Assembly: GCA_965603475.1 (NCBI GenBank) | Contig: CBFDDD010000002.1 | Span: forward strand, 57,531 to 121,530 | DNA: 64,000 nt | Origin: an uncultured Myxococcales bacterium | GTDB lineage: Bacteria > Myxococcota_A > UBA9160 > UBA4427 | Direction of reading: 5' to 3' | Shown here: positions 5,663 through 29,795 of the stretch, in pieces | Numbering within the stretch: position 1 is the first letter of the stretch | How the letters are laid out: every line of letters begins with the position of its first letter | Program-made: the position numbers and the translations under genes | Notes under the pieces: generated by a model | Told to the model about the DNA's origin: nothing | The model's input: the letters and a program-made list of their open reading frames with translations, nothing else | The model's database searches: none

Positions 5663-5727
5663 GTAGTCGAGCTGCATTTTTTCTTGTGTCGCGAGAACAT
5701 CTTTCTGTATGGGTTAAAAAACCTACA

Positions 5728-5773
5728 CAATGGTCTGATAGTGATTGACGTAGGCTGACCATGGGTCATGCTT
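5728..5773 (+). promoter_or_regulatory. Candidate sigma70 promoter and operator(s) upstream of the fab cluster
   Basis: TTGACG at 5745-5750 with a weak -10 (CATGCT) ~16-17 nt downstream. Perfect inverted repeat TGACC-ATG-GGTCA (5756-5768) lies in the spacer; TGGTCTGA lies just upstream of the -35. Confidence 0.35.
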
Positions 5774-6038
5774 GGGAAGCAGGGGTGATGTACTTCAAGA
5801 ATTTGCGAGAGATTTGCAGTTCGGACCTCCATCCACCGCTATTTTCAAGCTCAGGCCTCGCTCTTGCGTGGCCTGTGGGCGACCGTTGCAGCCAGCCGAT
5901 CCGGCCCAGGAGGGGTGGGACCCGCCCGGAAAGCTGCGGTCGTCGTCGCCTGAGCTCCGCGAGATTTGAGCGCCTGCGACCGGGACTGTCGTCGAAGCGA
6001 GAGGCGAACCGAGAGGCGATCGGTTCAGCAAGCGCGAA

Positions 6039-7028
6039 TTGAAGGGGATTCTCTTGGGCAAGAAGCAGGCTACGAACGATTCTGGAGAACATTTTCCGAG
6101 CAACGAATGGGCATTGATTCTTGGTGGCTCGAGTGGGTTTGGTCTTGCGACGGCGAAGCGCCTTGCGCGTGCCGGACTGAATATCCTGATCGTTCATCGG
6201 GATCGTCGCGGAGCCATGAAGGCCATCCAGCCACATTTCGATGAGCTGGCCGAGTTCGGTACGGGACTTCATATCTGGAATGCCGATGCCATCAGTTCGG
6301 ACAAGCGATCGGAGACGATCGACTCGATCGCCGAGGCGATTGGACCCGACGGCCGCATCCGGGTGCTGCTGCACTCGATCGCCTTCGGGAATCTAAAACT
6401 CATCGCGCCCGAAAAACTCGAGAAACGCACGGCGGGTCCGAATCTCGCCAAGAGGCTCGGAGTCGATCCCGCGAAGCTGACCGAGATTGCCGACGAGCTC
6501 TTCGATGAAGGTGAGGACGGACTTCATCCTCTGACGTCGGCCCCCAGCTATCCCGATAGCTCTTACCTGGACGAGGAAGATTTCAGTCGCACGATCCTGG
6601 CGATGGGTACCAGCCTGCTGGGTTGGACCCAGGATCTTTTCAAGCGGGGCCTTTTCGCTCCTGATACTCGAATCTTCGGGCTGACCAGTGAGGGAAACGA
6701 GGTCGCCTGGCGAGGCTATGCAGCCGTTTCCGCGGCGAAGGTCTCTCTCGAGGCACTCTCCCGATCCATCGCGATCGAATTCGGTCCCTATGGCATCCGC
6801 TGCAACGTGATCCAGGCCGGGGTGACCAACACCCCTGCCCTTCGCGCTATTCCCGGCAGCGATCAGCTCAAGAGTCAGGCTCGACTTCGAAATCCCGGCT
6901 GTCGACTGACCACCCCTGAAGACGTCGCGGGCGTGATCTTCCTGCTCTCACAAGATGAAGCGAGTTGGATCAATGGCGAAGTCATTCGGGTCGACGGCGG
7001 GGAGCATATCTCTGGTGCGACGCGATGA
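6039..7028 (+). CDS. Enoyl-ACP reductase-like SDR (FabL/FabI type)
   Basis: Rossmann GGSSGFG; YX6K catalytic motif (YAAVSAAK); CNVIQAGVTNTPAL; first gene of the fab cluster. Start codon uncertain (TTG). Confidence 0.8.
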   Translation: MKGILLGKKQATNDSGEHFPSNEWALILGGSSGFGLATAKRLARAGLNILIVHRDRRGAMKAIQPHFDELAEFGTGLHIWNADAISSDKRSETIDSIAEAIGPDGRIRVLLHSIAFGNLKLIAPEKLEKRTAGPNLAKRLGVDPAKLTEIADELFDEGEDGLHPLTSAPSYPDSSYLDEEDFSRTILAMGTSLLGWTQDLFKRGLFAPDTRIFGLTSEGNEVAWRGYAAVSAAKVSLEALSRSIAIEFGPYGIRCNVIQAGVTNTPALRAIPGSDQLKSQARLRNPGCRLTTPEDVAGVIFLLSQDEASWINGEVIRVDGGEHISGATR

Positions 7029-7052
7029 TGACGGATAGCTGAGGGTACAGTC

Positions 7053-8048
7053 TTGAGCTTGAACCTGTTGGGATTGGGTCATTTCCATCCCGAGAACGAG
7101 ATAACGAATCAGTTCCTCGAGGACCTCGACATTGGCACCAATGACGAGTGGATTCTCGAGCGAACGGGCATTCGCAGCCGCAGAACAGCGCTGCCCCTCG
7201 ACTATATTCGGGAGACGCGGAACAAAGATCCGCGCGCCGCGGTCGAGTCCGCGGTGATCTCCAATGCCGAGTCCGGCGCTCGGGCCGCCGAGATGGCGCT
7301 TTCCCGCGCCGGAATTGCTGCCAGCGACGTCGGACTCTTGATAGGCGGTGGCTGCGCGCCGGATACAGTGACGCCTGCAGAAGCCTGCAATATCGGTGCA
7401 GCGCTCGGTGTCGAAGCACCTTGTCTCGACATCAACTCCGCGTGCTCGAGTTTCATTGCGGGTATCTACATGCTCTCGATGATGGATCCGACAAAACTGC
7501 CTCCGATCGTTCTGCTCGTCACAGCGGAGCCCATGACGGGGACAGTCGACTACAGCGATCGCTCTTCAGCCGTACTCTGGGGGGATGGTGCCCTCGCTGG
7601 GGTGCTGTCGACCAAGGAGACTGGGCGCGCGTCGCTCGTGGGCCAGACACTCACGAGTAATCCCGCCGGCCGAGAGAAAATCGTCATTCCTAGGCTCGGC
7701 CATTTTCGCCAGGAAGGTCGGACCGTTCAGAGCTTTGCGATTCGGAAAACCTCCAACCGCTATCTCTCTATGCGAGAGTCCTTCAGGCAGGACGATCGGG
7801 CCTTTCACTTCGTGGGCCACCAGGCAAATCTACGAATGCTCGAGTCCGTGTGTCGTCGCTGCGAGATTCCCAACGACCTCCATCATTCCAATTGTGAATT
7901 TTTCGGCAATACGGGGGGCGCAAGCTCCGGTGGCGTAATCTCCCAGAACTGGGACAAATGGACCCCAAGAGACGACATCAGCGTGGTTGGTGTCGGTGCG
8001 GGGCTGACCTGGGGCAGCTATCTGATGCGCTTCAATGAGGACGACTGA
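7053..8048 (+). CDS. fabH: 3-oxoacyl-ACP synthase III
   Basis: WILERTGIRSR; Cys-His-Asn triad (SACSSF, HQAN, GNTG); GVGAGLTWG. Confidence 0.9.
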   Translation: MSLNLLGLGHFHPENEITNQFLEDLDIGTNDEWILERTGIRSRRTALPLDYIRETRNKDPRAAVESAVISNAESGARAAEMALSRAGIAASDVGLLIGGGCAPDTVTPAEACNIGAALGVEAPCLDINSACSSFIAGIYMLSMMDPTKLPPIVLLVTAEPMTGTVDYSDRSSAVLWGDGALAGVLSTKETGRASLVGQTLTSNPAGREKIVIPRLGHFRQEGRTVQSFAIRKTSNRYLSMRESFRQDDRAFHFVGHQANLRMLESVCRRCEIPNDLHHSNCEFFGNTGGASSGGVISQNWDKWTPRDDISVVGVGAGLTWGSYLMRFNEDD

Positions 8049-8054
8049 ATAACG

Positions 8055-8648
8055 ATGCTGACCCATGCTGAATTTCTTGGCCGCAATGCCTTCACGAAGC
8101 CGGATCTGCTGGCCTTCGCCTACGGCCGTCTGATCGAGAACCCGCCGGAGGGGTTTCGGGCGCGTCTACCCTTGCCGCCGATGCTCATGGTCGACCGGAT
8201 CGACCATATCAGCGCCGACAAGAGCCGAGGCAAGCTGAGTGCCTCGCGCGATGTCCAGCTCGATGATTGGTTCTTTCATTGTCATTTCCTCGATGATCCG
8301 GTTCAACCTGGATGTCTCGGACTCGACGGAGTCTGGCAGCTGCTTGGCTTCTATTGCAATTGGCGTGGTGGAGTAGGGACGGGTCGCGCCCTAGGTTGTG
8401 GTGAGGTCGAGTTCTTCGGACAGATTCGGCCGCATGACGGAGTGATGCGCTACGAGGTTCAGGTGAAGCGATACACCGAGCTCAAGAATGCGGGAGCCTC
8501 GATGATCATCGGAGACGCCCAGGTTCTGATCGACGATGAGGAAATCTATACGGTGAAGGGAGCCCGGGTCGGGTTGTTTCGAGACATCGACTATCCGGAT
8601 TATCCCTATGAATCAAAGAATGCCCACGGCGGAAGGAACGAAGCATGA
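8055..8648 (+). CDS. fabA: 3-hydroxyacyl-ACP dehydratase/isomerase, FabA type
   Basis: LPLPPMLMVDRI; WFFHCHFLDDPVQPGCLGLD (His-Asp dyad typical of FabA); GRALGCGEVEFFGQI. Confidence 0.9.
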   Translation: MLTHAEFLGRNAFTKPDLLAFAYGRLIENPPEGFRARLPLPPMLMVDRIDHISADKSRGKLSASRDVQLDDWFFHCHFLDDPVQPGCLGLDGVWQLLGFYCNWRGGVGTGRALGCGEVEFFGQIRPHDGVMRYEVQVKRYTELKNAGASMIIGDAQVLIDDEEIYTVKGARVGLFRDIDYPDYPYESKNAHGGRNEA

Positions 8649-9373
8649 GCGATCAGCCTGTCGCCCTCGTGACCGGTGGCGGAACCGGAATTGGTGCAGC
8701 CTGTTGTCGCCAGCTGGCCGCCGAAGGCTTTCGAGTCGGCATCCACTATCGATCGAGTGAGGAAAAGGCCAAGAAGCTAGCCGCCGAGCTGGATGGTGCG
8801 TTTACGATCAAGGCCGATTTGATGGATTCGGAGTCTCTGGATGCGCTCGTGAAGGAGCTGAAAGAAGTGGCCGGCCGGATCGATGTTCTCGTCAATAACG
8901 CGGGATACAACATCAATGCGCCGATGCTCGCGATGAAACTCGACGAATACGATGCTGTGGCCAGTGTGGCGCGAGGCACCTGGTACCTGACGAAGCTCGT
9001 GTTGCGCCGGTTCATGTTGCGAAAGGGAACGGGGCGCGTCATCAATATTTCGAGTGTCGTGGGTCATACCGGTAATCCAGGCCAGATTCCGTATACGATG
9101 GTCAAGGCCGGCCTCGATGCCTTCACAAAGTCGCTCGCTCAGGAACTCGCGGGTCGCGATATCCTTGTGAACGCGGTCGCACCGGGCTTCATCGATACCG
9201 AGATGACGGAAGAACTACCCGAAGAAGTGAAGGAGGCGATTCTGTCCAAGATTCCCATGGGCAGAACCGGCAAAGCCGACGAGATTGCGGATGTGGTCGC
9301 GTTTCTGGCCACACGCGGAAGCTATGTCAACGGCAGCGTGCTTCACGTGAACGGAGGCATGTACGGTGGGTGA
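8645..9373 (+). CDS. fabG: 3-oxoacyl-ACP reductase
   Basis: TGGGTGIG, NNAG, ISSVVG, YTMVK and VAPGFIDTEM; ATGA overlap with fabA. Confidence 0.9.
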   Translation: MSDQPVALVTGGGTGIGAACCRQLAAEGFRVGIHYRSSEEKAKKLAAELDGAFTIKADLMDSESLDALVKELKEVAGRIDVLVNNAGYNINAPMLAMKLDEYDAVASVARGTWYLTKLVLRRFMLRKGTGRVINISSVVGHTGNPGQIPYTMVKAGLDAFTKSLAQELAGRDILVNAVAPGFIDTEMTEELPEEVKEAILSKIPMGRTGKADEIADVVAFLATRGSYVNGSVLHVNGGMYGG

Positions 9374-9824
9374 TAGCCTGACGAGGGAAGAAGTACTCGC
9401 GATGGTGCCCCAACAGGAGCCCTTCCGTTTCATCGACGAAATTGTCGAACTCGACGCGGAGCATATCGTGGCGCGGCATACATTCTCGCCGGACGCTGAC
9501 TTCTATCGTGGTCATTTTCCCGGCAACCCGATCACGCCTGGCGTGATATTGATCGAGACTGCGGCTCAAGCCGCAGTGGTTGCATTCGGCATCTATCTCT
9601 ACGCACTCGAGACGTCACGCGAGGATGTCGACAAATTGCTGACGATTTTCACGGACTGCAATATCGACTTTTCGGGCACGGTCCGGCCGGGAGATCGCGT
9701 CGAGACGACCGGACGAATCAAGTTCTTTCGCCGCAAGAAGTTGCGAGCGACCTTTGAGATGACGATCGATGATGGGACAGTCGTTTGTTCAGGAGAACTG
9801 TCCGGAATGGGAGTACCGAGATGA
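9366..9824 (+). CDS. fabZ: 3-hydroxyacyl-ACP dehydratase, FabZ type
   Basis: PQQEPFRFIDEI; GHFPGNPITPGVILIE (His-Glu dyad typical of FabZ); VRPGD. Confidence 0.85.
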   Translation: MGDSLTREEVLAMVPQQEPFRFIDEIVELDAEHIVARHTFSPDADFYRGHFPGNPITPGVILIETAAQAAVVAFGIYLYALETSREDVDKLLTIFTDCNIDFSGTVRPGDRVETTGRIKFFRRKKLRATFEMTIDDGTVVCSGELSGMGVPR

Positions 9825-11113
9825 GCGCGAAGGACGAAAGAACGCGCGTTGTGATCACGGGTCTCGGTGTAATCGCCCCGAATGCGAACGGGGTTGCCGA
9901 CTTTGATATGGCATTGCGCAAGGGTCAATCCGGGCTGAAGCACCAGGAGAAGATGGCCGAGGCGAAATTCGGCTGCACAGTCGCCGGGACTCCCGTTGGG
10001 GTGGACGCGCTTTGCGACGAAACCTTCACGCAAGAACAGCTTCTCGCAATGAACATGAATCAGCGTTATGCGAGTCTGGCAGCGATCGAAGCCTGGGAGG
10101 ATGCCGGTCTCGCGCGACCCACTGAAGATTCAGATGAGGTCGACTGGCGAACCGGAGCGATTCTCGGCACGGGTATCGGCGGAATGGACACGATTGCCGA
10201 AAAGGTCGTTCCGTTTACGGACGCAGGTAAGGTTCGAAGGATGGGATCGACCTGCGTCGAGCAGGTGATGGCGAGCGGAATTTCGGCTCGTCTCTCGGGG
10301 TTGCTCGCCCTTGGCAATCAAGTGACGACCAATTCCAGCGCATGCAGTACCGGCACTGAGGCGCTTTCCATGGGGATGGAGCGAATTCGCGCTGGGCTCG
10401 CGGATCGCATGCTCTGCGGTGGAGCCGAAGCGGCGAGTCACTACATCTGGTCGGGCTTCGACGCGATGCGCGTACTGAACCGGGGCTCGAACGACGAGCC
10501 GGAGAAGGCTTCACGACCCCTCAGCGCTTCGGCCGGCGGATTCATTCCGGGTTCGGGTGCGGGTGTCGTTCTACTCGAGAGCCTCGAGAGCGCGCAGGGT
10601 CGTGGCGCACATATCCATGCTGAACTGATCGGCTCGAGTTTGAACTGTGGCGGCCATAGAATGGGCGGCAGTATGACGGCACCCAATCCGACCAGTGTTC
10701 AACGATGCATCGGAGATGCGCTGGCCGATGCGGGCGTCCATCCCGATCAGGTCGATGCGATCAACGGTCATTTGACGGCGACGGGTGCGGATCCCAAGGA
10801 GGTCGCTGCCTGGGCAAAAGCGCTCGGACGGGCGCCGGGAACCCTGCCGCCGATCACGGCGACCAAGAGTATGATCGGTCATGCTCTCGGAGCGGCTGGG
10901 GGCATCGAATCCGTTGCTTCTGCTTTGATGGTGGAGCGCGGGTATGTGCATCCCAGCATCAATTGTGAGGATGTACATCCAGATATCGAGATGCACGCTG
11001 CGTCGATTCCGCATAGCGCACTCGACTTGCCAGATCTCGACATTCTGGTCAAGGCGGGTTTCGGTTTCGGAGACGTCAACGCCTGTCTGGTTTTCAAGCG
11101 CTACAAGGCGTAG
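9821..11113 (+). CDS. fabF: Beta-ketoacyl-ACP synthase (FabF/FabB family)
   Basis: VVITGLG; Cys-His-His triad (SACSTG, INGHLT, KSMIGH); GFGFG. Start at ATG 9821, overlapping the fabZ stop. Confidence 0.85.
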   Translation: MSAKDERTRVVITGLGVIAPNANGVADFDMALRKGQSGLKHQEKMAEAKFGCTVAGTPVGVDALCDETFTQEQLLAMNMNQRYASLAAIEAWEDAGLARPTEDSDEVDWRTGAILGTGIGGMDTIAEKVVPFTDAGKVRRMGSTCVEQVMASGISARLSGLLALGNQVTTNSSACSTGTEALSMGMERIRAGLADRMLCGGAEAASHYIWSGFDAMRVLNRGSNDEPEKASRPLSASAGGFIPGSGAGVVLLESLESAQGRGAHIHAELIGSSLNCGGHRMGGSMTAPNPTSVQRCIGDALADAGVHPDQVDAINGHLTATGADPKEVAAWAKALGRAPGTLPPITATKSMIGHALGAAGGIESVASALMVERGYVHPSINCEDVHPDIEMHAASIPHSALDLPDLDILVKAGFGFGDVNACLVFKRYKA

Positions 11114-11179
11114 CGCTCGTGCGACTCGTCAGAAGGCGAGCCGAAGAATTTTCTGGGACGAAGTATAGGAGTGGAAGTG

Positions 11180-11425
11180 ATGGAACAGTCGGAAGTCATG
11201 GAGCGAGTGGTCAAGATTCTCACACCGTGGGTGAAGGATGAGGCGGCGTTGGGCAAGGTCTCGATGGAGACCAATATTCTCGAAGACCTGAAGGTCAACT
11301 CGGCGCGACTCGTCGATGTCGTGATCGCCTTCGAGGACGATTTCGATATCGAGATCGCTGATGAGGACGTCGACCAGGTGAATACGGTCGGTGACGCGGT
11401 CAACCTTATCTCGGGGAAACTCTAG
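11180..11425 (+). CDS. acpP: Acyl carrier protein
   Basis: Small acidic protein, EDLKVNSARLVDVVIAFEDDFDIEI...TVGDAV; AGGAG RBS 8 nt before ATG 11180. Confidence 0.88.
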   Translation: MEQSEVMERVVKILTPWVKDEAALGKVSMETNILEDLKVNSARLVDVVIAFEDDFDIEIADEDVDQVNTVGDAVNLISGKL

Positions 11426-11510
11426 TCCGATATCGGACCTGATCGGGCGAGATGAACTGCGGGCGGATCGTGTGACTGTGGCCAGAAGACCAACAGTCAA
11501 GAATTCGGGG

Positions 11511-12239
11511 ATGGTGCGACGACACGCGCGGCAGCGTGTTATCAGCATGATTGCGGCACCGGTATGGCTTCTACTTCCAGTGCTCGCGCTCCGATTTTAT
11601 TTTCGATACCGGATCGCGAATGTCCAATCGGTTCGAGCGCAGTACAGGCGAATTCACGCCGAGTCGAACGCACCGATGCTGATCTGCGCAAATCATTTGA
11701 CGCTGATCGACTCCTTTCTTGTCGCATGGGCGTTGGGATCGGGGTTCTATTGGCTTCGCCACCCCGATGAGTTGCCGTGGAACACGCCAGAGAGCACGAA
11801 TTTCGGGAAGACCCGGATTTCACGGATGCTGATCTTCGTCATGAAATGTATTTCGATCACTCGGGGTGGTCCGCGCGAAGACGTTGGCGTTGTCCTCGAG
11901 CGCGTGAAATATCTGCTCTTGAATGGCGAGACCGCACTGCTCTTTCCCGAGGCGGGGCGAAGTCGATCGGGTCGCGTAGAGGAAGATGCTGCTGCCTGGG
12001 GCGTTGGTCGCGTTATTGGCGCGGTTCCTCGCTGCCGCGTGCTGTGTGTCTATCTGCGGGGTCGCCAGCAAGCAACATGGAGCGATACTCCAGCAAAGGG
12101 CGACACGCTGGATGTGTCGCTCGTATGTATCGAGCCAAAGAGCGATGCGAAAGGCGTACGTCGCTCTCGCGATCTAGCCAAACAAGTGACAGGTCAGCTG
12201 GTGAGGATGGAGGGAGACTATTTCGATGCTCGGCAATGA
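11511..12239 (+). CDS. PlsC-like (LPLAT) acyltransferase
   Basis: HX4D motif (ANHLTLIDS); FPEAGRS; N-terminal hydrophobic segment. Start uncertain (GTG 11478 or ATG 11511). Confidence 0.8.
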   Translation: MVRRHARQRVISMIAAPVWLLLPVLALRFYFRYRIANVQSVRAQYRRIHAESNAPMLICANHLTLIDSFLVAWALGSGFYWLRHPDELPWNTPESTNFGKTRISRMLIFVMKCISITRGGPREDVGVVLERVKYLLLNGETALLFPEAGRSRSGRVEEDAAAWGVGRVIGAVPRCRVLCVYLRGRQQATWSDTPAKGDTLDVSLVCIEPKSDAKGVRRSRDLAKQVTGQLVRMEGDYFDARQ

Positions 12240-12951
12240 CATCGTTGATCTCCGGGATTCCGATGCTCGTCCCGAGAGCTTTCGTGCGCGTTTCGACGAT
12301 CGCGTCTTCTCCGCCGAGGAGCAACGTGCGATCGCGCAAGATTCGAATCCTCTCGCGCGCCGCTGGGCCCACTGGGGAGCCAAGGAAGCGGCGTACAAAC
12401 TTGCGAAGCAGTTTGATTCGAGATTCGTGTTCACTCCCGGACGACTGGTCGCTCACTATGTCGACGACGAAAACAATGTCGCTTTGTCGCGCCGCGTCGT
12501 TTCTCGACTTGAACGGCGAGGCGAGCTTGAATTGCCATTCCCACTCCCGCAAGGAACGCGCATGCTGGAGTTGCGGAGCTTTGAAACCCCCGATCGAGTT
12601 CATGTCGTCGCTGTGCCCCAGGGTTCGGATTGGGGTGCTGTCGAAGTGGCTGTAGAGGCGCTCGACCGCAACTCGGATGACCCGAGCGTGGCGGTTCGCG
12701 CTTTGGCGATTCGTGGGATCAGCCGTAGCCTCGGCATAGCGCCAGGGCGACTCAGTATCGGTCGTGAGGGTCGAATACCCACTGTTGAACTCGATGGGTT
12801 GCGAACTCCCCTGTCTCTTTCGCTCTCCCATCACGGGGGTTGGATCGCCTATGCGATGAGGCTTCGGATGGACTTTCAAAACCAATCGATCTGGACCGAA
12901 GACCAGACAGATTCTGCTGCCCGAGCGGCGGGGGCGGTGTGGACTCCATGA
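12226..12951 (+). CDS. 4'-phosphopantetheinyl transferase (Sfp/AcpS superfamily)
   Basis: LGNDIVDL; WGAKEAAYK; C-terminal LSLSHHG; overlaps both neighbouring genes. Confidence 0.85.
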   Translation: MLGNDIVDLRDSDARPESFRARFDDRVFSAEEQRAIAQDSNPLARRWAHWGAKEAAYKLAKQFDSRFVFTPGRLVAHYVDDENNVALSRRVVSRLERRGELELPFPLPQGTRMLELRSFETPDRVHVVAVPQGSDWGAVEVAVEALDRNSDDPSVAVRALAIRGISRSLGIAPGRLSIGREGRIPTVELDGLRTPLSLSLSHHGGWIAYAMRLRMDFQNQSIWTEDQTDSAARAAGAVWTP

Positions 12952-15900
12952 CGAGTGAAAAGCCGGGTCTGCGGAAAATCGAACGTCTCGCGATCGTCAA
13001 TCGAGGCGAAGCGGCTGTTCGATGTCTTCGCACAGCAAAAAGTCTTCGCGAATGCGAAGGTGGCGGTCTCGAGATCATCGCGCTGTATACGCCGCCGGAT
13101 CGCGATGCGCCATTTGTGAAACAAGCCGATCGGGCAGTCCTACTACCCACGGAAAACGGCGCAGTCGCGGCCTATCTCGATCATGATGCGCTGCTCGCGG
13201 CATTGCGCGAGGTTGGAGCCGATGCTGTCTGGCCTGGCTGGGGTTTCGTTGCTGAAGATCCGGTTTTCGTCGACAGGCTGACGAGTGAAGGAATCGTGTT
13301 TCTCGGTCCAACTGCCGACGCTATGCGAATGCTCGGCGACAAAATCACTTCCAAGCACCTCGCGGAAAAGGCCGGTGTACCGGTTACGGAATGGAGCGGC
13401 GGCGAAGTCGTGGATGAAGCCGAAGCGCTCGTGCATGCCGAGCGGATCGGTTTTCCGGTCGTGCTCAAGGCGACCGCCGGCGGCGGTGGCCGCGGTATCC
13501 GAATGGTCGAGAAAGCGGGCGAGCTCGCCGATGCTTTTCGGTCCGCTCAGTCGGAAGCGGTATCGGCGTTTGGCAACGGAGCACTCTTCGTCGAATCGAT
13601 GGTTCGCGATGGCCGCCATATAGAGGTCCAGATCGCGGCGGACCGTCACGGCCATGCGCTCGCCGTCGGTTGTCGCGACTGTTCTGTCCAACGACGTCAT
13701 CAGAAGGTCCTCGAAGAAGCTCCGCCTCCCGGCGTTTCAGACGACATGATTCGGCGGCTGGAAGAGTCGGCCATTCGACTGGTCGAACACGTCGGCTATC
13801 ACGGAGTCGGTACTGTCGAGTTCTTGCTGACAGGTGATGATTTCTTTTTCCTCGAGGTCAATCCCCGCCTTCAGGTCGAGCATGGCATTACGGAGCTCAT
13901 CGCGGGTATCGATCTCGTCGAACTCCAGATCCGCATCGCACGCGGTGAATCGATCGCCGACACTAGGGTTCAACAACGGGGGATTGCGCTCGAGGCACGC
14001 CTCAATGCCGAGGACCCCGATGAGGGTTTCCTGCCTTCACCCGGTCGGATCGCACTCTTTGAGCCCGCCCTCGGACCGAATACTCGCATCGACTCCGGCG
14101 TCACGACAAATAGTGTTATTTCTTCGGAATTCGATTCTCTGATCGCGAAGGTGATCGCGAGTGGTGATGACCGGGCAGAAGTGATCGCGCGACTTTCCTG
14201 CGCGCTGCGAGATCTCGAGCTGGTTGTCGAGGGCGGTGCAACCAACAAGGGCTATCTGCTCGATATCCTCGCGAGTGACGATTTTCGAGCAGGCGGCGTA
14301 GATACCCGCTGGCTGGATCGTTGGGGCGAAGATCGACAGAGCATCACGCTTTCGCATCCCGTCTTGACACAGGATGCCCTTGTCGCCGCGGCGATTCTCG
14401 CCTATCAGCGAACTCGCGCGACACTGCGCACGGGAATATTCGGTGGACGAGGGAGTGGAGATCGCCTGCCTTCTTCCGAGGGTCAGCAGATCGATCTTAC
14501 TTTTGGCACGGAAAGCTATCGGCTCAAAGTCTACGCGATCGGCTCCTGGCGGTATCGAGTCCATCTCGAAGGTGCCGCCGTCGGTGCGACGATGCGAGAA
14601 GAGGGGGCACATGCCGGCCGTCTGATCATCGATGATCGTATTCGCCGCATCATCCACGACGTCAATGATCGGGGATTGCGTCTCGAAGTAGATGGTCATC
14701 CGTTGCGCTTCGGTTCGCAGACTGCAGGCCAGGTTCGCTCGAGCACGCCCGCCGTCGTCGTCGCCATCCAGGTTGAGGTCGGCCAGAGCGTTGCGGTTGG
14801 AGATCCGCTCGGTCTACTCGAAGCAATGAAAATGGAAATTGGATTCCAGGCACCGGTTGCGGGGACGATCAAAGAAATTCTCGTCCAGAAGGGACAGCAG
14901 GTCGCCGCTGGAGACCTGATTCTGGTCATCGAGGAATCGGCGACGGACGCAGAAGACGCGCCGGCACGTACCCGGCTGAGTCTTCCGGCCCAGGTCGATC
15001 CGCTCGCGCGGCTCTTCCAATCGCAGACTCATGAGGATGGTCATCGCGTGCTCGGAGCACCCGACCTGTCGGCTGCGGACCAGGCAGATCTTGCATCGCG
15101 GCGGGTCGCGATCGACGCGGCTCGGGAGGAGATCCGCCGGGTTCTTCTTGGCTACGACGCGAACCCAGACCGTGCCGAATTGCTCGCATCCTTTCTCGAA
15201 GCGCCTCTCCCGGAGACCATCTCGGAGAGTTTCAGTCGCGAGCTCGCAGAAATTCGCCATGAGGTCACGACCTTTGCGGATGTCGAACAGCTCTTCATCC
15301 GTTCCCCGAACGCCTCGATTTCGGGACAATCCGGACCTTCGAACGCCGCTCGTCTACGCATGTACCTGCGGCGGATCGAGGCGGAAGGGTCCGGGATCGA
15401 CGAGAGTTTTCTTGATCTCGTACGGGCAGCGTTGTCGCATTATGGTGTTTCAGACCTCGCCCCGACCGACGCACTGAGCCGTGCGTTGCTGCGTATCCTG
15501 ACGTGCCAGGTAGACAAGAAGCTTCGCCTCAGCCTGATCCTGGGGGTTCTTCGTCGAATTACGGTTTTGGCCCAGCGAGGCATCTACATGGGTGACGACG
15601 ACCGTCTCGCCCGCGCGCTCAACCGTATTGCACGCATGCGTCCCCAGGTAACGGATACCGTTGCTGATGCAGCACTCGAATCCGCCTATATGGTGTTCCT
15701 GCAGCCCGGCATCGAGGAGCGCGCGAAGCGGTCGTCCAGCACAGTCGAGGATTGGCTTGCCGCTGCAGAAGTGGACCTCATTGCACCACCGGCTGGTGTA
15801 TTGCTGGAAGTCGCATCGTCGCCACGACTCGTCTTCGAGAGAGTGGGTCGCTGGATTGGGGGTTCAGATACGAATCGTCGGGCCATCGCTCTAGCGGCTC

Positions 15901-18569
15901 ACGTGCAGCGTCGATATGCGCCGTGTACCCCCGATGCGTATAGAGCGGTACGCGTCGATGGAGAACCGATTCACTGCGTGGAGTACAAAGACAAAGGCGT
16001 CGTTCTGGCGGCGACGGGCGGAGCATCGGAAACGAGCCTATGGATGGATCGTCTCGTACGTGGAGCCGATTCGCTTCTCGATCGCGATCCGGAGACTCCG
16101 ATCGTTGCACTCGAGTATCTGATGCCGGCCGGCGACGAACTCGATTGGGACGAGGTCATGGGTGCGGTCCAGAAGGCTTATTCGGACAGGGAGCTTGGCT
16201 GGCGTATGACAATCGGTGTTCTGACACCGGATGGAGAAGGTGACGTCTATCGAACCCTCATTAGGCGAGGAGGTCGGCTCGAGATTGCACTCGAACATCA
16301 CGACCTACATCCGGAAACCGCTGGGCGGATCGCGCTCGATCGATATGAAGCTTTTGATCTAGAGCGACTACAGGCCGAAGAGGGGACCTACGCCTTCTAT
16401 GGCCGCGCACGCAATGTGCCGGGTGACGAACGTGTGATCGTGCTCGCGGACGCACGAGATCGTTCGCCCGAACCGGGTCGCGAACTCTATCACCATCTTG
16501 CGACCTTCGAGCGAGTCTTCAATCGCGCAGCCAGACGCCTCCGCACGGTTCTTCAGACCCATGACCCACGTCGCCGTCTGCAGTGGAATCGCATCGCGAT
16601 ATTCATCGCTCCGTCGATCTTCGTCGATCAGGAAGTCGCGAGTGATATCGCGAGACGGCTCGCGCCGGCGACTCGACATCTGGGCCTGGAAAAGGTCATC
16701 GTCAAATTGAATCGACTCGATCGGGAGAATCCAGACCAGCCCGCCGCGCCCTGGGAACTCGTGATCACGGACACAGGAGAACAGCTCGAAGTCGTCTGGC
16801 GAGAGCCGCATAGCACGCCGCTGGCGCCGACGCAGGAATACGAGAGAAGGGTTGTCGCCGCTCGCCGAAGAAAGCTGATCTACCCATACGAGATCGTGAA
16901 GATGCTCACGAGCGAGGCGCCCGACGGATCGCGTGCCGACGGGTCTTTCGAGGAATACGACCTCGACGAGCAGAACCCGACCCCGGTCGCGGTGAGCGTT
17001 GCGGATCGTCCCTATGGTCAGAATCGCTCTGCGGTCGTTTTCGGTCTGATTCGTACGCCCACCGAGAAGGTGCCCGAGGGCATGTTGCGCGTGCTCGTGC
17101 TTTCGGATCCAACCATGGGAATGGGAGCGCTTTCGGCTCCGGAATGCGACCGATTGGTTGCAGCATTTGATCTTGCAGAGAGTCTAGGCGTGCCCCTCGA
17201 GTGGGTACCTGTGTCATCGGGCGCGAAAATCGCGATGGATAGCGGGACCGAGAATCTCGACGCGACGGCCCGTGTCGTTCGCCGTATCGTCACGTTCACA
17301 CAGAGCGGTGGCATCGTGCACGTGATCGTGCAGGGCGTCAACGTGGGTGCGCAAAGCTATTTCGATGCTCTCGCAACAATGCTGACACACACGAGTGGTG
17401 TGCTCATCATGACGCAGAATGCATCGATGGTGTTGACCGGTCGTGCGGCACTCGAAGCGTCGGGTGCCGTTTCCGCTGAAGACGAGATCGCAATCGGCGG
17501 ATTCGAACGGATCATGGGTCCAAATGGTGAGGCGCAGTACTTCGCGCGAAATCTCGCCGACGCCTATCGCATCCTCTACGACCACTATCGATATACCTAC
17601 ATCGTGCCCGGAGAAAACGCTCCGCGTCCCTTCGTGACGACCGATAATCGAACGCGATCGGTCGGGGATTCGTCGATTGCGAGCGCTGATTCCGATGGAC
17701 TCGCAACGGTTGGTGAAATTTTCGACAATGAGACGAACCCGGGACGGAAGCGCCCCTTCGCGATGCGCGGCGTGATGAGCGCGTTGATCGATGTCGACGG
17801 CGGCCATCTCGAGCGCTGGAATGCCTGGGTCGGAGCGGAGACTGCAATCATCTGGGATGCACATGTCGGCGGGCACCCGGTTTCGCTGATCGGAATCGAA
17901 AGTCGCAATGTTCCGCGGGACGGCTACCGCCCAGTCGATGGACCCGAAAGCTGGAACGGCGGTACGCTGTTTCCGCAATCGTCGAAAAAGGTTGCGCGCG
18001 CGATCAATGCTGCGAGCGGAAACCGCCCGATCGTCGTGTTGGCCAATCTATCCGGCTTCGATGGATCACCGGAATCCCTACGAAAGATGCAGCTGGAGAA
18101 TGGTGCCGAGATTGCGCGGGCAGTCGTCAATTTCCAGGGTCCGATCTACTTCGTCGTCGTTTCCCGCTACCACGGTGGTGCGTACGTCGTGTTTTCCCAG
18201 GAACTGAACGACAACATGAAAGCAGCCGCGCTGTCGGGTTCATATGCATCGGTCATCGGCGGCGGACCGGCCGCTGCGGTGGTATTCGGACGCGAAGTTC
18301 GTGCGCAGGCTCTCGACGATCCCCGAGTGAAGGACAAGACCGAGATTGCTCGACGAAATCCGACCGAGATGAATAGGGCGGCGCTCGAATCGGTGCTACG
18401 AGAAGTCACCTTGGAAAAGCAGGCGTCGATGGCCGTGGAATTCGATTCGGTCCACACCGTCGAGCGCGCTCGTGAGGTTGGTTCGCTTTCCGAAATCTTC
18501 GAGCCTGCTGAGCTGCGGCCTCGCGTGATTGCGGCCCTGGAAGAGTCGCTTAGCGACGCTTCCGGTTAG
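12948..18569 (+). CDS. Single-chain multidomain acyl-CoA (acetyl-CoA) carboxylase: BC-BCCP-central domain-CT
   Basis: BC motifs (NRGEAAVR, GGGGRGIR, RDCSVQRRHQK, EVNPRLQVEH); biotin site EAMKME; CT motifs (SSGAKI, GVNVGAQSY, ANLSGFDGS, RYHGGAYVVFS). ATG 12948 overlaps the PPTase stop; 1873 aa. Confidence 0.9.
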   Translation: MTSEKPGLRKIERLAIVNRGEAAVRCLRTAKSLRECEGGGLEIIALYTPPDRDAPFVKQADRAVLLPTENGAVAAYLDHDALLAALREVGADAVWPGWGFVAEDPVFVDRLTSEGIVFLGPTADAMRMLGDKITSKHLAEKAGVPVTEWSGGEVVDEAEALVHAERIGFPVVLKATAGGGGRGIRMVEKAGELADAFRSAQSEAVSAFGNGALFVESMVRDGRHIEVQIAADRHGHALAVGCRDCSVQRRHQKVLEEAPPPGVSDDMIRRLEESAIRLVEHVGYHGVGTVEFLLTGDDFFFLEVNPRLQVEHGITELIAGIDLVELQIRIARGESIADTRVQQRGIALEARLNAEDPDEGFLPSPGRIALFEPALGPNTRIDSGVTTNSVISSEFDSLIAKVIASGDDRAEVIARLSCALRDLELVVEGGATNKGYLLDILASDDFRAGGVDTRWLDRWGEDRQSITLSHPVLTQDALVAAAILAYQRTRATLRTGIFGGRGSGDRLPSSEGQQIDLTFGTESYRLKVYAIGSWRYRVHLEGAAVGATMREEGAHAGRLIIDDRIRRIIHDVNDRGLRLEVDGHPLRFGSQTAGQVRSSTPAVVVAIQVEVGQSVAVGDPLGLLEAMKMEIGFQAPVAGTIKEILVQKGQQVAAGDLILVIEESATDAEDAPARTRLSLPAQVDPLARLFQSQTHEDGHRVLGAPDLSAADQADLASRRVAIDAAREEIRRVLLGYDANPDRAELLASFLEAPLPETISESFSRELAEIRHEVTTFADVEQLFIRSPNASISGQSGPSNAARLRMYLRRIEAEGSGIDESFLDLVRAALSHYGVSDLAPTDALSRALLRILTCQVDKKLRLSLILGVLRRITVLAQRGIYMGDDDRLARALNRIARMRPQVTDTVADAALESAYMVFLQPGIEERAKRSSSTVEDWLAAAEVDLIAPPAGVLLEVASSPRLVFERVGRWIGGSDTNRRAIALAAHVQRRYAPCTPDAYRAVRVDGEPIHCVEYKDKGVVLAATGGASETSLWMDRLVRGADSLLDRDPETPIVALEYLMPAGDELDWDEVMGAVQKAYSDRELGWRMTIGVLTPDGEGDVYRTLIRRGGRLEIALEHHDLHPETAGRIALDRYEAFDLERLQAEEGTYAFYGRARNVPGDERVIVLADARDRSPEPGRELYHHLATFERVFNRAARRLRTVLQTHDPRRRLQWNRIAIFIAPSIFVDQEVASDIARRLAPATRHLGLEKVIVKLNRLDRENPDQPAAPWELVITDTGEQLEVVWREPHSTPLAPTQEYERRVVAARRRKLIYPYEIVKMLTSEAPDGSRADGSFEEYDLDEQNPTPVAVSVADRPYGQNRSAVVFGLIRTPTEKVPEGMLRVLVLSDPTMGMGALSAPECDRLVAAFDLAESLGVPLEWVPVSSGAKIAMDSGTENLDATARVVRRIVTFTQSGGIVHVIVQGVNVGAQSYFDALATMLTHTSGVLIMTQNASMVLTGRAALEASGAVSAEDEIAIGGFERIMGPNGEAQYFARNLADAYRILYDHYRYTYIVPGENAPRPFVTTDNRTRSVGDSSIASADSDGLATVGEIFDNETNPGRKRPFAMRGVMSALIDVDGGHLERWNAWVGAETAIIWDAHVGGHPVSLIGIESRNVPRDGYRPVDGPESWNGGTLFPQSSKKVARAINAASGNRPIVVLANLSGFDGSPESLRKMQLENGAEIARAVVNFQGPIYFVVVSRYHGGAYVVFSQELNDNMKAAALSGSYASVIGGGPAAAVVFGREVRAQALDDPRVKDKTEIARRNPTEMNRAALESVLREVTLEKQASMAVEFDSVHTVERAREVGSLSEIFEPAELRPRVIAALEESLSDASG

Positions 18570-18576
18570 TCCCAAA

Positions 18577-19575
18577 TTGGCTGGACATGACGACGGGCGG
18601 CAGTCCCCCTCAGATTTGCCGCTGCGTTTCCGAGATCGGATTCTGCTGGGCCTTCTGTGGACGTTGACCGTCCTCTTCGAGCGAATTCCGATTGATCGCG
18701 CAGTTTCGCTGGGCGCGAAACTGGGACGGGGCTGGTACGGATTGGGTGGTCCACGGACCCGTCGCGTTCGTGATCAGCTGGAGGCAGCGTTTCCGGAGCA
18801 GGATATTTCCGATCGCGAGAACTGGGCGCGGGAGGTCTTCATTCATCTAGGTAGAGGGCTTGCGGAGCTCGTACTACTTCGGGGGCGCCACCGAACAGCT
18901 CTACTCGATCGCGTCCAGGTCGAGGGCCTCGAACATATCGAGGCGGCCGCGCGCCAGACGCCGTCCGGCGGAGTCTTGATCGTGACGGCGCATTTCGGAA
19001 ATTGGGAGCTCGCTTGCGCCAAGGCCGCGTCGATCGGAATCCCGATTTCGGTGGTCTATCGCCGGCTGCGCCAGCCTTTGCTCGACCGCGCCATGCTCGG
19101 GTTACGAGCCGCTTCGTCGGAGCTGCCGAGTGGGGCAGCGACGGTCGATCAGATCCCAATGGGCCGGGCGGGAATTCGGCTGGTTCGCGCACTCGAGGCG
19201 GGTCGCAAGGTGGTCGTTCTGCTCGATCAGGATGCCCGGCGCAGTGAGGGCGTCTTCGTATCCTTTTTCGGACGACAAGCCAGCACGCGCGATGGGCCGA
19301 TCTCACTCGCGACGAAGCGTGGGGTCCCCGTCGTACTGGTTTTCGTGCGACGTGATGAAGATGGGCGGGCACACAGGCTCCGAATCCAGCCTGCACTCCA
19401 GCTCGAGTCGGGATCGTCCGATGACGAGGAAGTCCTGAGGAGGAATGTTCAGCGCATCACGGCGGCAATCGAAGAGGAAATTCGAGCTTGTCCGGGACAA
19501 TGGATCTGGACTCATCGGCGCTGGCGAACCCGGCCCGCGCCAAAATCCGCGATGTCTGACCGGAACAGGGTCTGA
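18577..19575 (+). CDS. LpxL/HtrB-family (lipid A late) acyltransferase
   Basis: TAHFGNWEL (HX4E), LLDQD, VFVSFFG and PGQWIWTHRRWRT. Start uncertain (TTG 18577 used). Confidence 0.85.
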   Translation: MAGHDDGRQSPSDLPLRFRDRILLGLLWTLTVLFERIPIDRAVSLGAKLGRGWYGLGGPRTRRVRDQLEAAFPEQDISDRENWAREVFIHLGRGLAELVLLRGRHRTALLDRVQVEGLEHIEAAARQTPSGGVLIVTAHFGNWELACAKAASIGIPISVVYRRLRQPLLDRAMLGLRAASSELPSGAATVDQIPMGRAGIRLVRALEAGRKVVVLLDQDARRSEGVFVSFFGRQASTRDGPISLATKRGVPVVLVFVRRDEDGRAHRLRIQPALQLESGSSDDEEVLRRNVQRITAAIEEEIRACPGQWIWTHRRWRTRPAPKSAMSDRNRV

Positions 19576-19613
19576 TCGAAACAGGCCCTTCGAATCATAC
19601 GAGGTCTCTCGAG

Positions 19614-20363
19614 TTGGCTGTTCACCGATCCATACGAACTTCACACACGAGCGGTATCCTCGTCCTCTCGCTCTTGATCGGAGGCTGCGTCAATTCGAAT
19701 AGGCCTGTCGGTTCTTCTTCACTCGATTCCGAAACTTGTCCAAGTGCTGAAGCCGTCGTGAACCTCGAACAAGCCCAGCTCTTTCGAGAGGCAGAGACCG
19801 AACGCGCGACGCAACTCCTGCAAGAGATCGAAAGGCTTCATGCCGACCTCGAGACTGCCGAGGCCGCGCTCGTCGAAGCAGAGTCTGGTCTTGCAACGAC
19901 ACATTCCCGAGCGGATGCCATTTCATCCATCGCAGTGACACGCATCCAGGTCGAACGGGCAGCGTCCTCCGCGCCGTGGCGAGCGGATGATATCGCGATG
20001 GCGCGAACCAAACTCGAAGAGGCCGAACGTCAGGTCGAAGAAGATCGATTTGGTGTTGCTCTCTTCTTCGTTCACCGGGCACGTCGAGCCGCCGAATCGA
20101 TCCTCGACGAAGCGGACCTCGTACGGCGCGACGGGCACGTCCAGCTGATTCAAGCGCCCCGCGTGAACTTGCGGGCAGGACCGTCTACGAGCGAATCGAT
20201 CTTGTCTGTGCTCAGTTTTGGGACGCCCGTGTTTCCCCAAGCGCGTGAAGGCAACTGGGTACTCGTCCAGGTCAGCGGGGGCCCCGTCGGATGGATCCAT
20301 CGACGGTTGGTCGGTACACGATTCTCGACCGAGAGTGAGGCCCCGGCAGCGCTCAGGCCTTAG
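19614..20363 (+). CDS. Lipoprotein with coiled-coil region and C-terminal bacterial SH3 domain
   Basis: Lipobox LIGGC; helical Ala/Glu-rich middle; VNLRAGPST...GNWVLVQ...GWIHRRLV (SH3b). Confidence 0.7.
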   Translation: MAVHRSIRTSHTSGILVLSLLIGGCVNSNRPVGSSSLDSETCPSAEAVVNLEQAQLFREAETERATQLLQEIERLHADLETAEAALVEAESGLATTHSRADAISSIAVTRIQVERAASSAPWRADDIAMARTKLEEAERQVEEDRFGVALFFVHRARRAAESILDEADLVRRDGHVQLIQAPRVNLRAGPSTSESILSVLSFGTPVFPQAREGNWVLVQVSGGPVGWIHRRLVGTRFSTESEAPAALRP

Positions 20364-22077
20364 TGGTTGGGATCGTGTCTGGGATAGGCGATCGGGGCCC
20401 GGCGTCGGCTGCGACAACCCGGTTGCGACCCGTGTCCTTTGCGGTGTAGAGAGCGGCGTCCGCATCCTTGAAGAGCTGCTTGCGATCTTCATAGAGAGTT
20501 GCGACGCCGATACTGACGGTGAGCTGTTCCTTCTCGCTCGGCACATCGGTCAAGAAGGTCTCTTCTTCGACGGATTGACGGATCTTCTCTCCGAGTGCGA
20601 CAACGCCGTCGAGATCCGTATCCAAGGCGATCAAGGCAAACTCTTCCCCGCCGTACCGGGTCAGGATGTCGGTTTCGCGAACACAATGATTCAGGACCTC
20701 GGCCAGTCTTCTCAGAATCTCATCGCCGCCCGCGTGCCCCAACCGATCGTTCCATTTCTTGAAATAATCGATATCGATCAGAATCAGGGATAGCGGGTCC
20801 TTCGAGCGTAGACTTCGTTTGCATTCCGTCGCAATCGACTCCTGAAAGTATCGATGGTTGTGAAGCTTTGTCAGGCCATCTGTGATCGACAGTTGTTCGA
20901 GAACGAGGTTCACATCCGAGAGTTCCTGGTTTTTGACGATGAGTTCGTCATTGGCCACCTTGACTGCGTGGTGGCTCTTCTCGATCTCGCGAGCATTTCG
21001 CTCGAGTCCGCGGCTCATTTCGTTGAACGTTCGCGTTAGAACGTTCACTTCCTCGGAAGTGAGAGTCGTTTCGTCGATCTCGACGTCACGTTCGCCCTTG
21101 GATAGGCGTTCCGCGGCGTCGGAGAGCGCGCGGAGAGGTCTGACGAAGGAGCCTGCGATCCGAGAGGCGGCAAGGCTGACGAGGAGTACGATCGCCAGAT
21201 TGAGTCCCGCTACGCGACCGATCGAGCCGGCAACCGGTGCAAATGCTTCCTCGTAGCGCTGCTCGAGAACCAGGATCCAGCCGAAGCGCGGAAAGGGGAC
21301 CTGGGCTCCCACGACGTGGAGATTCTGCACATTGTCATAGTGTGCGACGCCCAGAACGGAGGGGCTGTCCCGATTCGAACTCGCCTCAGGGGCAACGAAG
21401 CGGGTCTCCGGATCGAGCCCAGCAGGTGGATTCAAGAAGCGCATGTTGCGATCGACCAGGAAGACGCTGGCGCTTTCGCCGATGTCACGACTGCGAAGCG
21501 TCGACAAGAGAAAATCGAGATTCATCACCGCAAAGAGCCGTCCAATCGATCGCCCTTTCGCGTCTCGCATCGGGGTCGAAGCAATCTGGACGAAGTGGCC
21601 ATTGATTCGCATCGCATCGCTGATCGCGTTGGTTTCCTGGCGCGGCGTGGAAGCGGAGAGCAGGCCCTTGGGCAGCGGCTTTTCGTCGCCGACCTGAATC
21701 AGGGACTCACCGTCGGAATTCGTGAGTACCAGCCGCTCGAATTGTGGAAAGCTGTCGAGCACGTAGCGCAGGTATTGTTCGGTTTCGTCGCGGGCCCGCA
21801 GAGCACGGCGATGCGAGGTACCAAGCCGAGGCGCGGACTCAGTCAGGATCGCACTGCTCGCAAAGACCTCGAGTTCTCGGGAACGGAGCACATACCACTG
21901 ATCGAGTTCGCGGGAGATGCGGTCTGCGGCCCGGGGAAACCTCTGATCGACCTTCTCGTGCAGAAAACTGCTGAGCGACTGCACCGAGATCCAGGACACC
22001 GTGAGTGCGCTCACGACGGTCGCCAGGAAAACGAGCAGAATGATTCGGCCAGCGAGACTGCGAAGGGGGTTGTTCAT
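20353..22077 (-). CDS. Membrane diguanylate cyclase (Cache-HAMP-GGDEF)
   Basis: Two TM helices flanking a periplasmic Cache-like domain; HAMP; TDGLTKLHNHR; DIDYFKKWNDRLGHAGGD; GGEEF with RxxD I-site (RETD). Confidence 0.9.
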   Translation of the reverse strand: MNNPLRSLAGRIILLVFLATVVSALTVSWISVQSLSSFLHEKVDQRFPRAADRISRELDQWYVLRSRELEVFASSAILTESAPRLGTSHRRALRARDETEQYLRYVLDSFPQFERLVLTNSDGESLIQVGDEKPLPKGLLSASTPRQETNAISDAMRINGHFVQIASTPMRDAKGRSIGRLFAVMNLDFLLSTLRSRDIGESASVFLVDRNMRFLNPPAGLDPETRFVAPEASSNRDSPSVLGVAHYDNVQNLHVVGAQVPFPRFGWILVLEQRYEEAFAPVAGSIGRVAGLNLAIVLLVSLAASRIAGSFVRPLRALSDAAERLSKGERDVEIDETTLTSEEVNVLTRTFNEMSRGLERNAREIEKSHHAVKVANDELIVKNQELSDVNLVLEQLSITDGLTKLHNHRYFQESIATECKRSLRSKDPLSLILIDIDYFKKWNDRLGHAGGDEILRRLAEVLNHCVRETDILTRYGGEEFALIALDTDLDGVVALGEKIRQSVEEETFLTDVPSEKEQLTVSIGVATLYEDRKQLFKDADAALYTAKDTGRNRVVAADAGPRSPIPDTIPTTKA

Positions 22078-29784: not shown

Positions 29785-29795
29785 TCGCCTGAGAC

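Follow-up and report, generated by a model that had tools for sequence, protein, structure and literature searches.

The 64,000-nucleotide stretch of DNA analysed here (the window; contig CBFDDD010000002.1 of assembly GCA_965603475.1, from an uncultured marine Myxococcales bacterium) encodes a large single-chain acyl-CoA carboxylase with the domain order of the eukaryotic enzymes. Its gene is the tenth of eleven close-spaced or overlapping genes on the + strand (6039-19575), an operon for type II fatty acid synthesis (FAS II). Judged from sequence and genomic context, the protein is probably an active homomeric acetyl-CoA carboxylase (ACC), possibly acting on propionyl-CoA as well, that makes malonyl-CoA for its FAS II operon and that stands in for AccABCD in this marine class of Myxococcota. 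Malonyl-CoA for the operon is the most likely product because all 26 loci of close relatives keep the operon, because it holds the only FabA/FabZ-family genes outside an aryl-polyene-like cluster and the only phosphopantetheinyl transferase (PPTase) found, and because AccA is absent. The first-pass annotation, which was made from the letters of the DNA alone, had already proposed that the enzyme supplies malonyl-CoA to the fab cluster, and the operon context as well as the absence of AccA from the class fit this proposal. Beyond the domain assignments, we infer the activity, the substrate, the dimeric state and the role as main ACC.

Gene and domain architecture

The open reading frame (ORF) of 1873 codons contains no internal stop, and its length together with the Pfam E-values of the encoded domains shows that it is no chance product. 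Biotin carboxylase (BC), BT, biotin carboxyl carrier protein (BCCP), central and carboxyltransferase (CT) domains follow each other in one polypeptide:

12948..18569, + strand: gene for the single-chain acyl-CoA carboxylase (P0001), 1873 amino acids (open frame, Pfam domains, homologues)
12978..14318, + strand: BC domain, residues 11-457, ATP-grasp active site intact (Pfam, accC model at 445 bits, motifs)
14319..14732, + strand: BT-like linker domain, residues ~458-595 (continuous alignments, boundaries inferred)
14733..14930, + strand: BCCP domain, residues 596-661 (Biotin_lipoyl, motif LLEAMKMEI)
15000..16847, + strand: non-catalytic ACC central domain, residues ~685-1300 (family profile, PF08326 in relatives, AlphaFold2 fold)
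16965..18542, + strand: CT domain with both lobes, residues 1340-1865 (PF01039, CT family profile, tree, motifs)

The Pfam matches were Biotin_carb_N (residues 11-126, E 1.6e-31), CPSase_L_D2 (131-336, E 1.2e-61), Biotin_carb_C (349-457, E 5.8e-30), Biotin_lipoyl (596-661, E 1.4e-15) and Carboxyl_trans PF01039 (1378-1810, E 3.2e-33), the last of them covering profile positions 56-436 of 493 and with that both lobes. Frame and Pfam domains thus bear out the description given in the first-pass annotation, an ORF of 1873 amino acids with BC, a biotinyl domain with AMKM, a long central region and a two-lobed CT. A BT-type linker is present, since alignments with the alpha subunit of methylcrotonyl-CoA carboxylase (MCC-alpha, query residues 6-664) and with human ACC1 (query residues 143-642) run unbroken from BC through BCCP.

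An alternative, longer frame in the ORF list starts with TTG at 12840. We chose the ATG at 12948 as the start, since it forms an ATGA overlap with the stop codon (TGA) of the PPTase ORF before it (12226..12951) and since alignments with homologues begin at about residue 10. The same overlap is in good agreement with the earlier claim of translational coupling to a PPTase within a fab cluster, and the neighbouring genes were found as first described.

The BC motifs GDK, KATAGGGGRG, RRHQK, EFL, EVNPRLQVEH and RLNAEDP, which we take to correspond to the numbered residues of E. coli BC, all occur in the window protein and are kept throughout the family, and the same was observed for the CT motifs SGAKI, GIESR, FPQSSKK, LANLSGFDGSPES and HGGAYVV. 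The predicted biotinyl-Lys628 (codon 14829-14831) lies within EAMKM (residues 625-629) of the longer motif LLEAMKMEI (623-631). All 24 of 24 family members keep the biotinylation motif, with the variants MMKM in L088 and AMKL in L078.

A diverged ACC central domain

The identity of the ~700-residue stretch between BCCP and CT was visible only by family profile and fold search. By itself, the central region gave no Pfam match of its own, ACC_central (PF08326) included, and nothing in the PDB was matched by phmmer. When the window region and 23 homologues from public genomes were combined (alignment A1, 24 members), the resulting profile matched eleven PDB sequences at E 1.5e-8 or better, all of them eukaryotic ACCs. 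The best match was the yeast central domain (5i6e, 7.7e-18), and the yeast holoenzyme (5csk), the Chaetomium enzyme (5i6h) and human ACC1 (7.6e-13) were also matched. PF08326 recognised 19 of the 24 family members (best E 1.4e-24), the window sequence not being among them. An AlphaFold2 model of the central region built with the A1 alignment reached a mean pLDDT of 79 and a pTM of 0.73. In a Foldseek search of the PDB with this model, the top 31 matches were all yeast, human or Chaetomium ACC (E 5e-21 to 8e-8, spanning ~700-800 columns), and the next match followed at E 2.5e-3.

Family profile, PF08326 matches in relatives and fold match agree, and we conclude that the middle region is a true but much diverged ACC central domain and a homologue of that in eukaryotic ACC. 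ACC_central and CT had been named in the first-pass annotation as the domains to look for with hidden Markov models (HMMs); CT was detected on the window sequence directly, whereas ACC_central was not and appeared only via the 19 relatives and the family profile.

Affinities of the CT and BC domains

When CT alone was compared with the PDB, eukaryotic ACC CT domains came first (yeast 3tv5, 6e-16), with PccB/AccD5 types at ~1e-8. With the CT family alignment A2 used as profile, the 20 best PDB matches were all eukaryotic ACC CT (3e-26 to 1e-16) and the best PccB-type match followed at 3e-10. For a maximum likelihood tree, the CTs of the 24 family members were combined with the five PccB-like CTs of the window's genome and with two fungal CT fragments taken from HMMER output. 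Eukaryotic and bacterial multidomain sequences were split from the PccB types at 100/100, on very long branches and with the eukaryotes represented by the two fungal fragments. The bacterial multidomain group formed one clade (100/99), and its sole actinobacterial row, the metagenome-assembled genome (MAG) L088, fell inside it. With such branches and minimal eukaryotic sampling the tree supports membership of the family and nothing finer, and the bacterial clade nearest to the eukaryotes is not resolved by it. Of the phylogeny called for in the first-pass annotation, the tree thus gave the grouping of CT with the eukaryotic ACC type and apart from PccB.

The BC domain scored as an ordinary bacterial BC (accC model 445 bits, MCC-alpha 383 bits, E. 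coli AccC/BC 347 bits), and the whole protein aligned with full-length yeast ACC at 320 bits, below the scores of its BC with bacterial BCs.

Several other carboxylase identities were tried and rejected. The pyruvate carboxylase model NF009554 gave 528 bits at a cut-off of 965 and the urea carboxylase model TIGR02712 gave 476 bits at a cut-off of 1304; the best stretch was in both cases BC only (residues 9-470). Long-chain acyl-CoA carboxylase (LCC, structure 4rcn) matched residues 14-471, again BC only, and the window protein contains a central domain. A heteromeric AccABCD with separate AccA and AccD does not describe an enzyme that is a single chain. Clustering with urea, pyruvate or long-chain acyl-CoA carboxylases, which the first-pass annotation had named as the outcome that would speak against its proposal, was not observed, and the models of these enzymes matched the BC part only, below their cut-offs.

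The FAS II operon

Besides the carboxylase gene, the operon consists of ten genes; SDR denotes the short-chain dehydrogenase/reductase family, KAS a ketoacyl-ACP synthase and ACP an acyl carrier protein:

6039-7028, + strand: SDR/enoyl reductase-like protein (Pfam, NCBIfam)
7053-8048, + strand: FabH-like protein (Pfam, NCBIfam)
8055-8648, + strand: FabA (Pfam, NCBIfam)
8645-9373, + strand: FabG (Pfam, NCBIfam)
9366-9824, + strand: FabZ-like protein (Pfam, NCBIfam)
9785-11113, + strand: KAS I/II (Pfam, NCBIfam)
11171-11425, + strand: operon ACP, 84 amino acids, AcpP-like (sequence; PF00550 at 25 bits; below the cut-off of the AcpP model)
11391-12239, + strand: PlsC-type acyltransferase (PF01553, E 2.4e-8)
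12226-12951, + strand: PPTase, AcpS-like with an insert of ~110 amino acids (Pfam ACPS, E 2.3e-9; sequence)
18529-19575, + strand: LpxL/lysophospholipid-acyltransferase family protein, last gene of the operon (PF03279, E 6e-41; NCBIfam)

The boundaries of the operon were drawn from gene spacing alone, because a promoter/terminator consensus scan of positions 5500-20600 found sites no more numerous than in shuffled sequence. The gene order was kept in all 26 of the 26 close-relative loci with enough flanking sequence. The MAGs behind these loci are labelled Deltaproteobacteria or Myxococcota bacterium, in some cases wrongly Spirochaetaceae, and their central domains are 71-86% identical to that of the window. 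At this identity the synteny mainly reflects relatedness, since the non-lipid flanking genes (DinG, radical SAM genes, DnaA) are kept too. The complete genome G127, from another family of the same order, keeps SDR-FabH-FabG-FabZ-KAS-ACP-PlsC-PPTase-ACC; its FabA is located elsewhere and no LpxL gene follows the ACC.

The PPTase carries GNDIVDL at its N-terminus, WGAKEAAYK at residues 50-58 and GRIPTV...LSLSHHG at ~182-204, with the insert of ~110 residues between its two AcpS halves. By these motifs, the coupled PPTase classifies as AcpS-like, not Sfp-like, and it serves the carrier protein, not the carboxylase. No further PPTase was found by motif and HMM searches of all reading frames of the genome, which have limited sensitivity in a genome that is 92.7% complete.

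The operon ACP has NSA in place of the DSL attachment motif. It is 88-98% identical in the relatives, where its orthologues reach 44-48 bits with the AcpP model, compared with 101-114 bits for the canonical AcpP that all of these relatives encode away from the operon.

Other fatty acid and carboxylase genes of the genome

In the genome to which the window belongs (5.19 Mb, 208 contigs, 92.7% complete), AccA was not found; the PF03255 model only picked up PccB-like genes, as weak cross-matches of at most 36.7 bits. Of eight PF01039 matches in the genome, not one was AccD-like, and no CT other than that of the window reached a specific NCBIfam cut-off. The search for accABCD elsewhere, a check named in the first-pass annotation, thus recovered neither AccA nor an AccD-like gene in this genome, nor AccA in any of the 28 genomes sampled from the class.

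Of the FabA/FabZ-family genes of the genome, two lie in the operon and one in an aryl-polyene-like cluster, and there are no others. The operon is the sole FabA/FabZ site also in relatives, including two genomes of one or two contigs. Because AccA is absent and the operon contains the only FabA/FabZ genes of this kind and the only PPTase, we regard it as the principal FAS II set of the organism, with FabD and AcpP encoded elsewhere. The fabD gene is found at the start of contig C24 (204-1172, minus strand), and the end of contig C58 cuts off a canonical acpP (VELVMTLEETFDIEIPDDDAEK...; 29704-29802, minus strand). These two contigs probably adjoin, giving fabD-acpP as in G127; here acpP is followed by glyA-nrdR-ribD and not by fabF. 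A housekeeping role of the operon ACP, considered for want of a canonical AcpP, lost its basis with the truncated acpP and the AcpP of all relatives. With a canonical AcpP elsewhere, a private carrier protein in the main FAS II operon hints at a specialised product.

Some further loci were recorded. A second single-chain carboxylase of 1093 amino acids (C12:63412-66693, minus strand; L099:3413-6694) has the length of the LCC structure 4rcn and consists of BC (1-465) and a PccB-like CT (598-1077), with no central domain. Canonical-looking FabH and KAS genes and a Lipid_desat gene (PF10520, CarF/plasmanylethanolamine-desaturase family) stand in a row at C52:13267-16219 (L097:4268-7220), which may be a plasmalogen-related lipid locus. 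The aryl-polyene-like cluster (C6:63000-73600; L095, L096) encodes a KAS, an MMPL transporter, an ACP, an AMP-ligase fused to an ApeI-type dehydratase and an LpxL-family acyltransferase.

Distribution in Myxococcota

The family is large, since more than 536 clusters at 90% identity match the central region. Its distribution was studied in 151 Myxococcota genomes, evenly drawn from 119 genera. A central-domain carboxylase was present in 59 of them (39%), from 46 genera: in 10/10 genomes of the window's own family, 12/14 of the rest of the order, 4/4 of the rest of the class and 33/123 of the rest of the phylum. True AccA was found in 50 of the 151 genomes and in none of the 28 of the window's class. 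Only four genomes had both AccA and a central-domain ACC, and 46 had neither. The resulting anticorrelation of the two (Fisher p 1.3e-8, uncorrected for phylogeny) serves as supporting evidence only, because of the missing correction and because it fails in Acidobacteriota.

In the two same-order genomes that lack the enzyme (G021 and G072, family f4), the whole operon is absent and there is no FabA/FabZ gene. Another genome of the order (G082, family f6) also has no FabA/FabZ-family gene; it contains two single-chain ACC frames of 2438 and 2194 amino acids. All three organisms may use a type I fatty acid synthase.

Distant homologues in pfaA-like cassettes

Homologues with ~40% overall identity (55-60% in CT) were found in Acidobacteriota (Terriglobia, Bryobacterales, Korobacteraceae), in Holophagales, in one Actinomycetota MAG and in other Myxococcota. 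Nearly all of these genes immediately follow that of a PfaA-like megasynthase (KS-AT-KS/CLF-ACPn-KR-DH) and have an Sfp-type PPTase gene as neighbour. In the cassette loci (L039-L092; for example L042:2-14398 and L040:3-13534) the order is megasynthase, ACC, PPTase. Such cassettes have been described as the 'Type R' secondary-lipid cluster, and a gene for 'part of the ACC complex' between pfaA and pfaE of Candidatus Koribacter versatilis Ellin345 was mentioned in passing (Shulse & Allen 2011, PMC3098273). Full-text searches retrieved no literature on such enzymes in Myxococcota or Acidobacteriota beyond this remark. Of the concern raised in the first-pass annotation, that homologues might be common and already described in the lineage, the first half is correct, with 59 of 151 Myxococcota and many Acidobacteriota, and for the second the searches gave the Koribacter remark (PMC3098273) and nothing more.

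No PfaA-like gene was found in the window or in its 26 close relatives, and the one megasynthase of the genome, on contig C1, reaches just 27-38% identity and is not an adjacent gene. Canonical AccA is present as well in 12 of 12 Acidobacteriota and Holophagales genomes tested, and the three Myxococcota-type genomes tested had no AccA. By this pattern of genes, the single-chain ACC of Acidobacteriota and Holophagales appears to be an accessory, pathway-dedicated enzyme. A two-gene module of ACC and PPTase with a common origin was considered; shared ancestry of the pair is unsupported because the PPTases are of different types, AcpS-like in the window and Sfp-type in the pfaA cassettes.

The homologue of the Actinomycetota MAG (L088:6554-12268) has degenerate BC motifs (VVDRISA, GGGRQQVR, RGHRK, KVNPRLQAAH), with BCCP and CT motifs largely kept, and its ATP site is probably dead.

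Proposed function and alternative explanations

As expected from the family, the BC domain would use ATP and bicarbonate to form carboxylated biotin on Lys628 of BCCP. BCCP would then swing to CT, which would carboxylate acetyl-CoA, and probably also propionyl-CoA as in SACE_4237 of Saccharopolyspora erythraea, with malonyl-CoA as product. The non-catalytic central domain would position BC and CT, as in yeast ACC. FabD, encoded elsewhere, would load malonate onto ACP, and this malonyl load would be consumed by the FAS II enzymes that are encoded with the carboxylase in the 11-gene operon. The operon further contains genes for a private ACP, two acyltransferases and the one PPTase that could be detected. 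Among the bacteria of this lineage, the single-chain enzyme would hold the place that AccABCD has in most diderms.

Several observations weigh against a role as the main ACC. The genome is incomplete and fragmented, as given above. Canonical AcpP and FabD lie outside the operon, which has a second, atypical ACP, a hint of a specialised product. The genome also has several BC genes and no fewer than five further genes for PccB-type CTs, any of which could form a two-subunit ACC, and the 46 of 151 genomes with neither AccA nor a central-domain ACC mean that PccB-type two-subunit enzymes evidently suffice in the phylum. Furthermore, the family can be accessory, because its members coexist with AccA in 12/12 of the Acidobacteriota and Holophagales genomes.

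Some of these observations lend weight to a dedicated supplier, an explanation that we consider rather unlikely and that survives best among the alternatives. Malonyl-CoA from the enzyme would then go exclusively into a specialised lipid that is assembled on the private ACP and transferred by the PlsC- and LpxL-type acyltransferases, such as an atypical lipid A or membrane acyl chain, and an alpha/beta carboxylase encoded elsewhere would be the housekeeping ACC. The atypical ACP and the PPTase of the operon, with canonical AcpP and FabD elsewhere, and the several alpha/beta carboxylase genes of the genome are consistent with such a division of labour. So is the homologue in pfaA-like cassettes with a PPTase in Acidobacteriota, Holophagales and some Myxococcota (PMC3098273), which in the first two groups coexists with AccA. 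However, the operon cannot be purely accessory, because the FabA/FabZ dehydratases (apart from the one in the aryl-polyene-like cluster) and the only detectable PPTase are encoded there, and no other CT of the genome attains a specific NCBIfam cut-off. The sole FabZ/FabA and PPTase genes in the operon blur the line between a dedicated supplier and a main ACC.

A different substrate seems considerably less probable. CT would in this case carboxylate propionyl-, butyryl- or longer acyl-CoAs and produce methylmalonyl- or alkylmalonyl-CoA extenders for branched lipids. SACE_4237 takes acetyl- and propionyl-CoA about equally (PMC6491548), and the CT of the window is so divergent from characterised eukaryotic CTs (weak matches of 61-96 bits) that substrate specificity cannot be read from the sequence. 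The CT nevertheless belongs to the ACC-type clade and not to the PccB, LCC, MCC or GCC types, the LCC structure 4rcn resembles only the BC part, and the genes around it code for common FAS II enzymes working with malonyl-ACP. That the protein is a relic, inactive or regulatory, and kept as a pseudo-enzyme for scaffolding is hardly credible: a family member with degenerate BC motifs does exist (L088), but all checked BC, BCCP and CT motifs are intact in the window protein and conserved in relatives 70-97% identical to it.

Comparison with known systems

Among characterised enzymes, SACE_4237 is closest by published description, which was used for the comparison in place of its sequence. This homodimeric enzyme carboxylates acetyl- and propionyl-CoA with similar efficiency, is essential, and provides the malonyl-CoA from which fatty acids are made (Livieri et al. 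2019, PMC6491548). Enzymes of this type ('group V') have a central region and a CT grouping with eukaryotes, were reported from actinobacteria only, and led the authors to propose an actinobacterial origin of eukaryotic ACC (PMC6491548). The window enzyme is likewise a single chain of ~200 kDa with BC, BCCP, an ACC central region and a CT of eukaryotic type, and it would likewise supply malonyl-CoA, which was shown for SACE_4237 and is proposed here, in a bacterium without a conventional essential ACC. Unlike SACE_4237, it comes from a diderm of the Myxococcota, its gene is coupled inside an operon of FAS II, ACP, PPTase and acyltransferase genes, and its central domain is too diverged to match PF08326 on its own.

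With the homomeric ACCs of eukaryotes (yeast Acc1, 5csl; human ACC1, 6g2d/8xkz; Chaetomium, 5i6e-i) the window protein shares the domain order, the central domain by profile (E 8e-18) and by fold (Foldseek E 5e-21), and the best PDB match of its CT. It differs from them in being ~350-500 residues shorter and in a central-domain identity of 13-18%. Type R cassettes (PMC3098273) resemble the window operon in that a homologous single-chain ACC stands beside a PPTase and an ACP-dependent acyl-chain synthase. There, the synthase is a KS-AT-CLF-ACPn-KR-DH megasynthase, the PPTase is Sfp-type and AccA is kept, whereas the window has dissociated FAS II partners, an AcpS-like PPTase and no AccA. The LCC of Mycobacterium avium subsp. 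paratuberculosis (4rcn) is also a bacterial single-chain biotin carboxylase holoenzyme. Unlike the window protein, it has only ~1090 amino acids, no central domain and a PccB-like CT, and the match between the two is confined to BC.

Significance

Single-chain ACCs with a central domain were long seen as a eukaryotic hallmark, and to our knowledge the only characterised bacterial one is actinobacterial (2019). The enzyme type has accordingly been known in bacteria since 2019; new are its context, a FAS II operon in a genome without AccA, and its broad distribution, and no new mechanism is involved. An intact eukaryote-type ACC that is widespread in Myxococcota and occurs in many Acidobacteriota widens the pool of possible donors of the eukaryotic gene. 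Myxococcota are also under discussion as a source of eukaryotic sterol synthesis.

Accessory use in Acidobacteriota, with AccA, and probable housekeeping use in the lineage of the window, without AccA, form a natural contrast, and compact one-gene ACCs are attractive for malonyl-CoA engineering. More speculatively, and in our view unlikely as a whole, a eukaryote-architecture ACC could have replaced AccABCD throughout the class and become a fixed part of the one FAS II operon, alongside a private ACP and the sole PPTase of the cell. ACC and PPTase would then be a supply and activation unit repeatedly coupled to a local acyl-chain synthase, PfaA-type in Acidobacteriota and some Myxococcota and FAS II here. 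Among living bacteria, this large uncultured group of Myxococcota, and not the actinobacteria, could then stand nearer to the donor of eukaryotic ACC.

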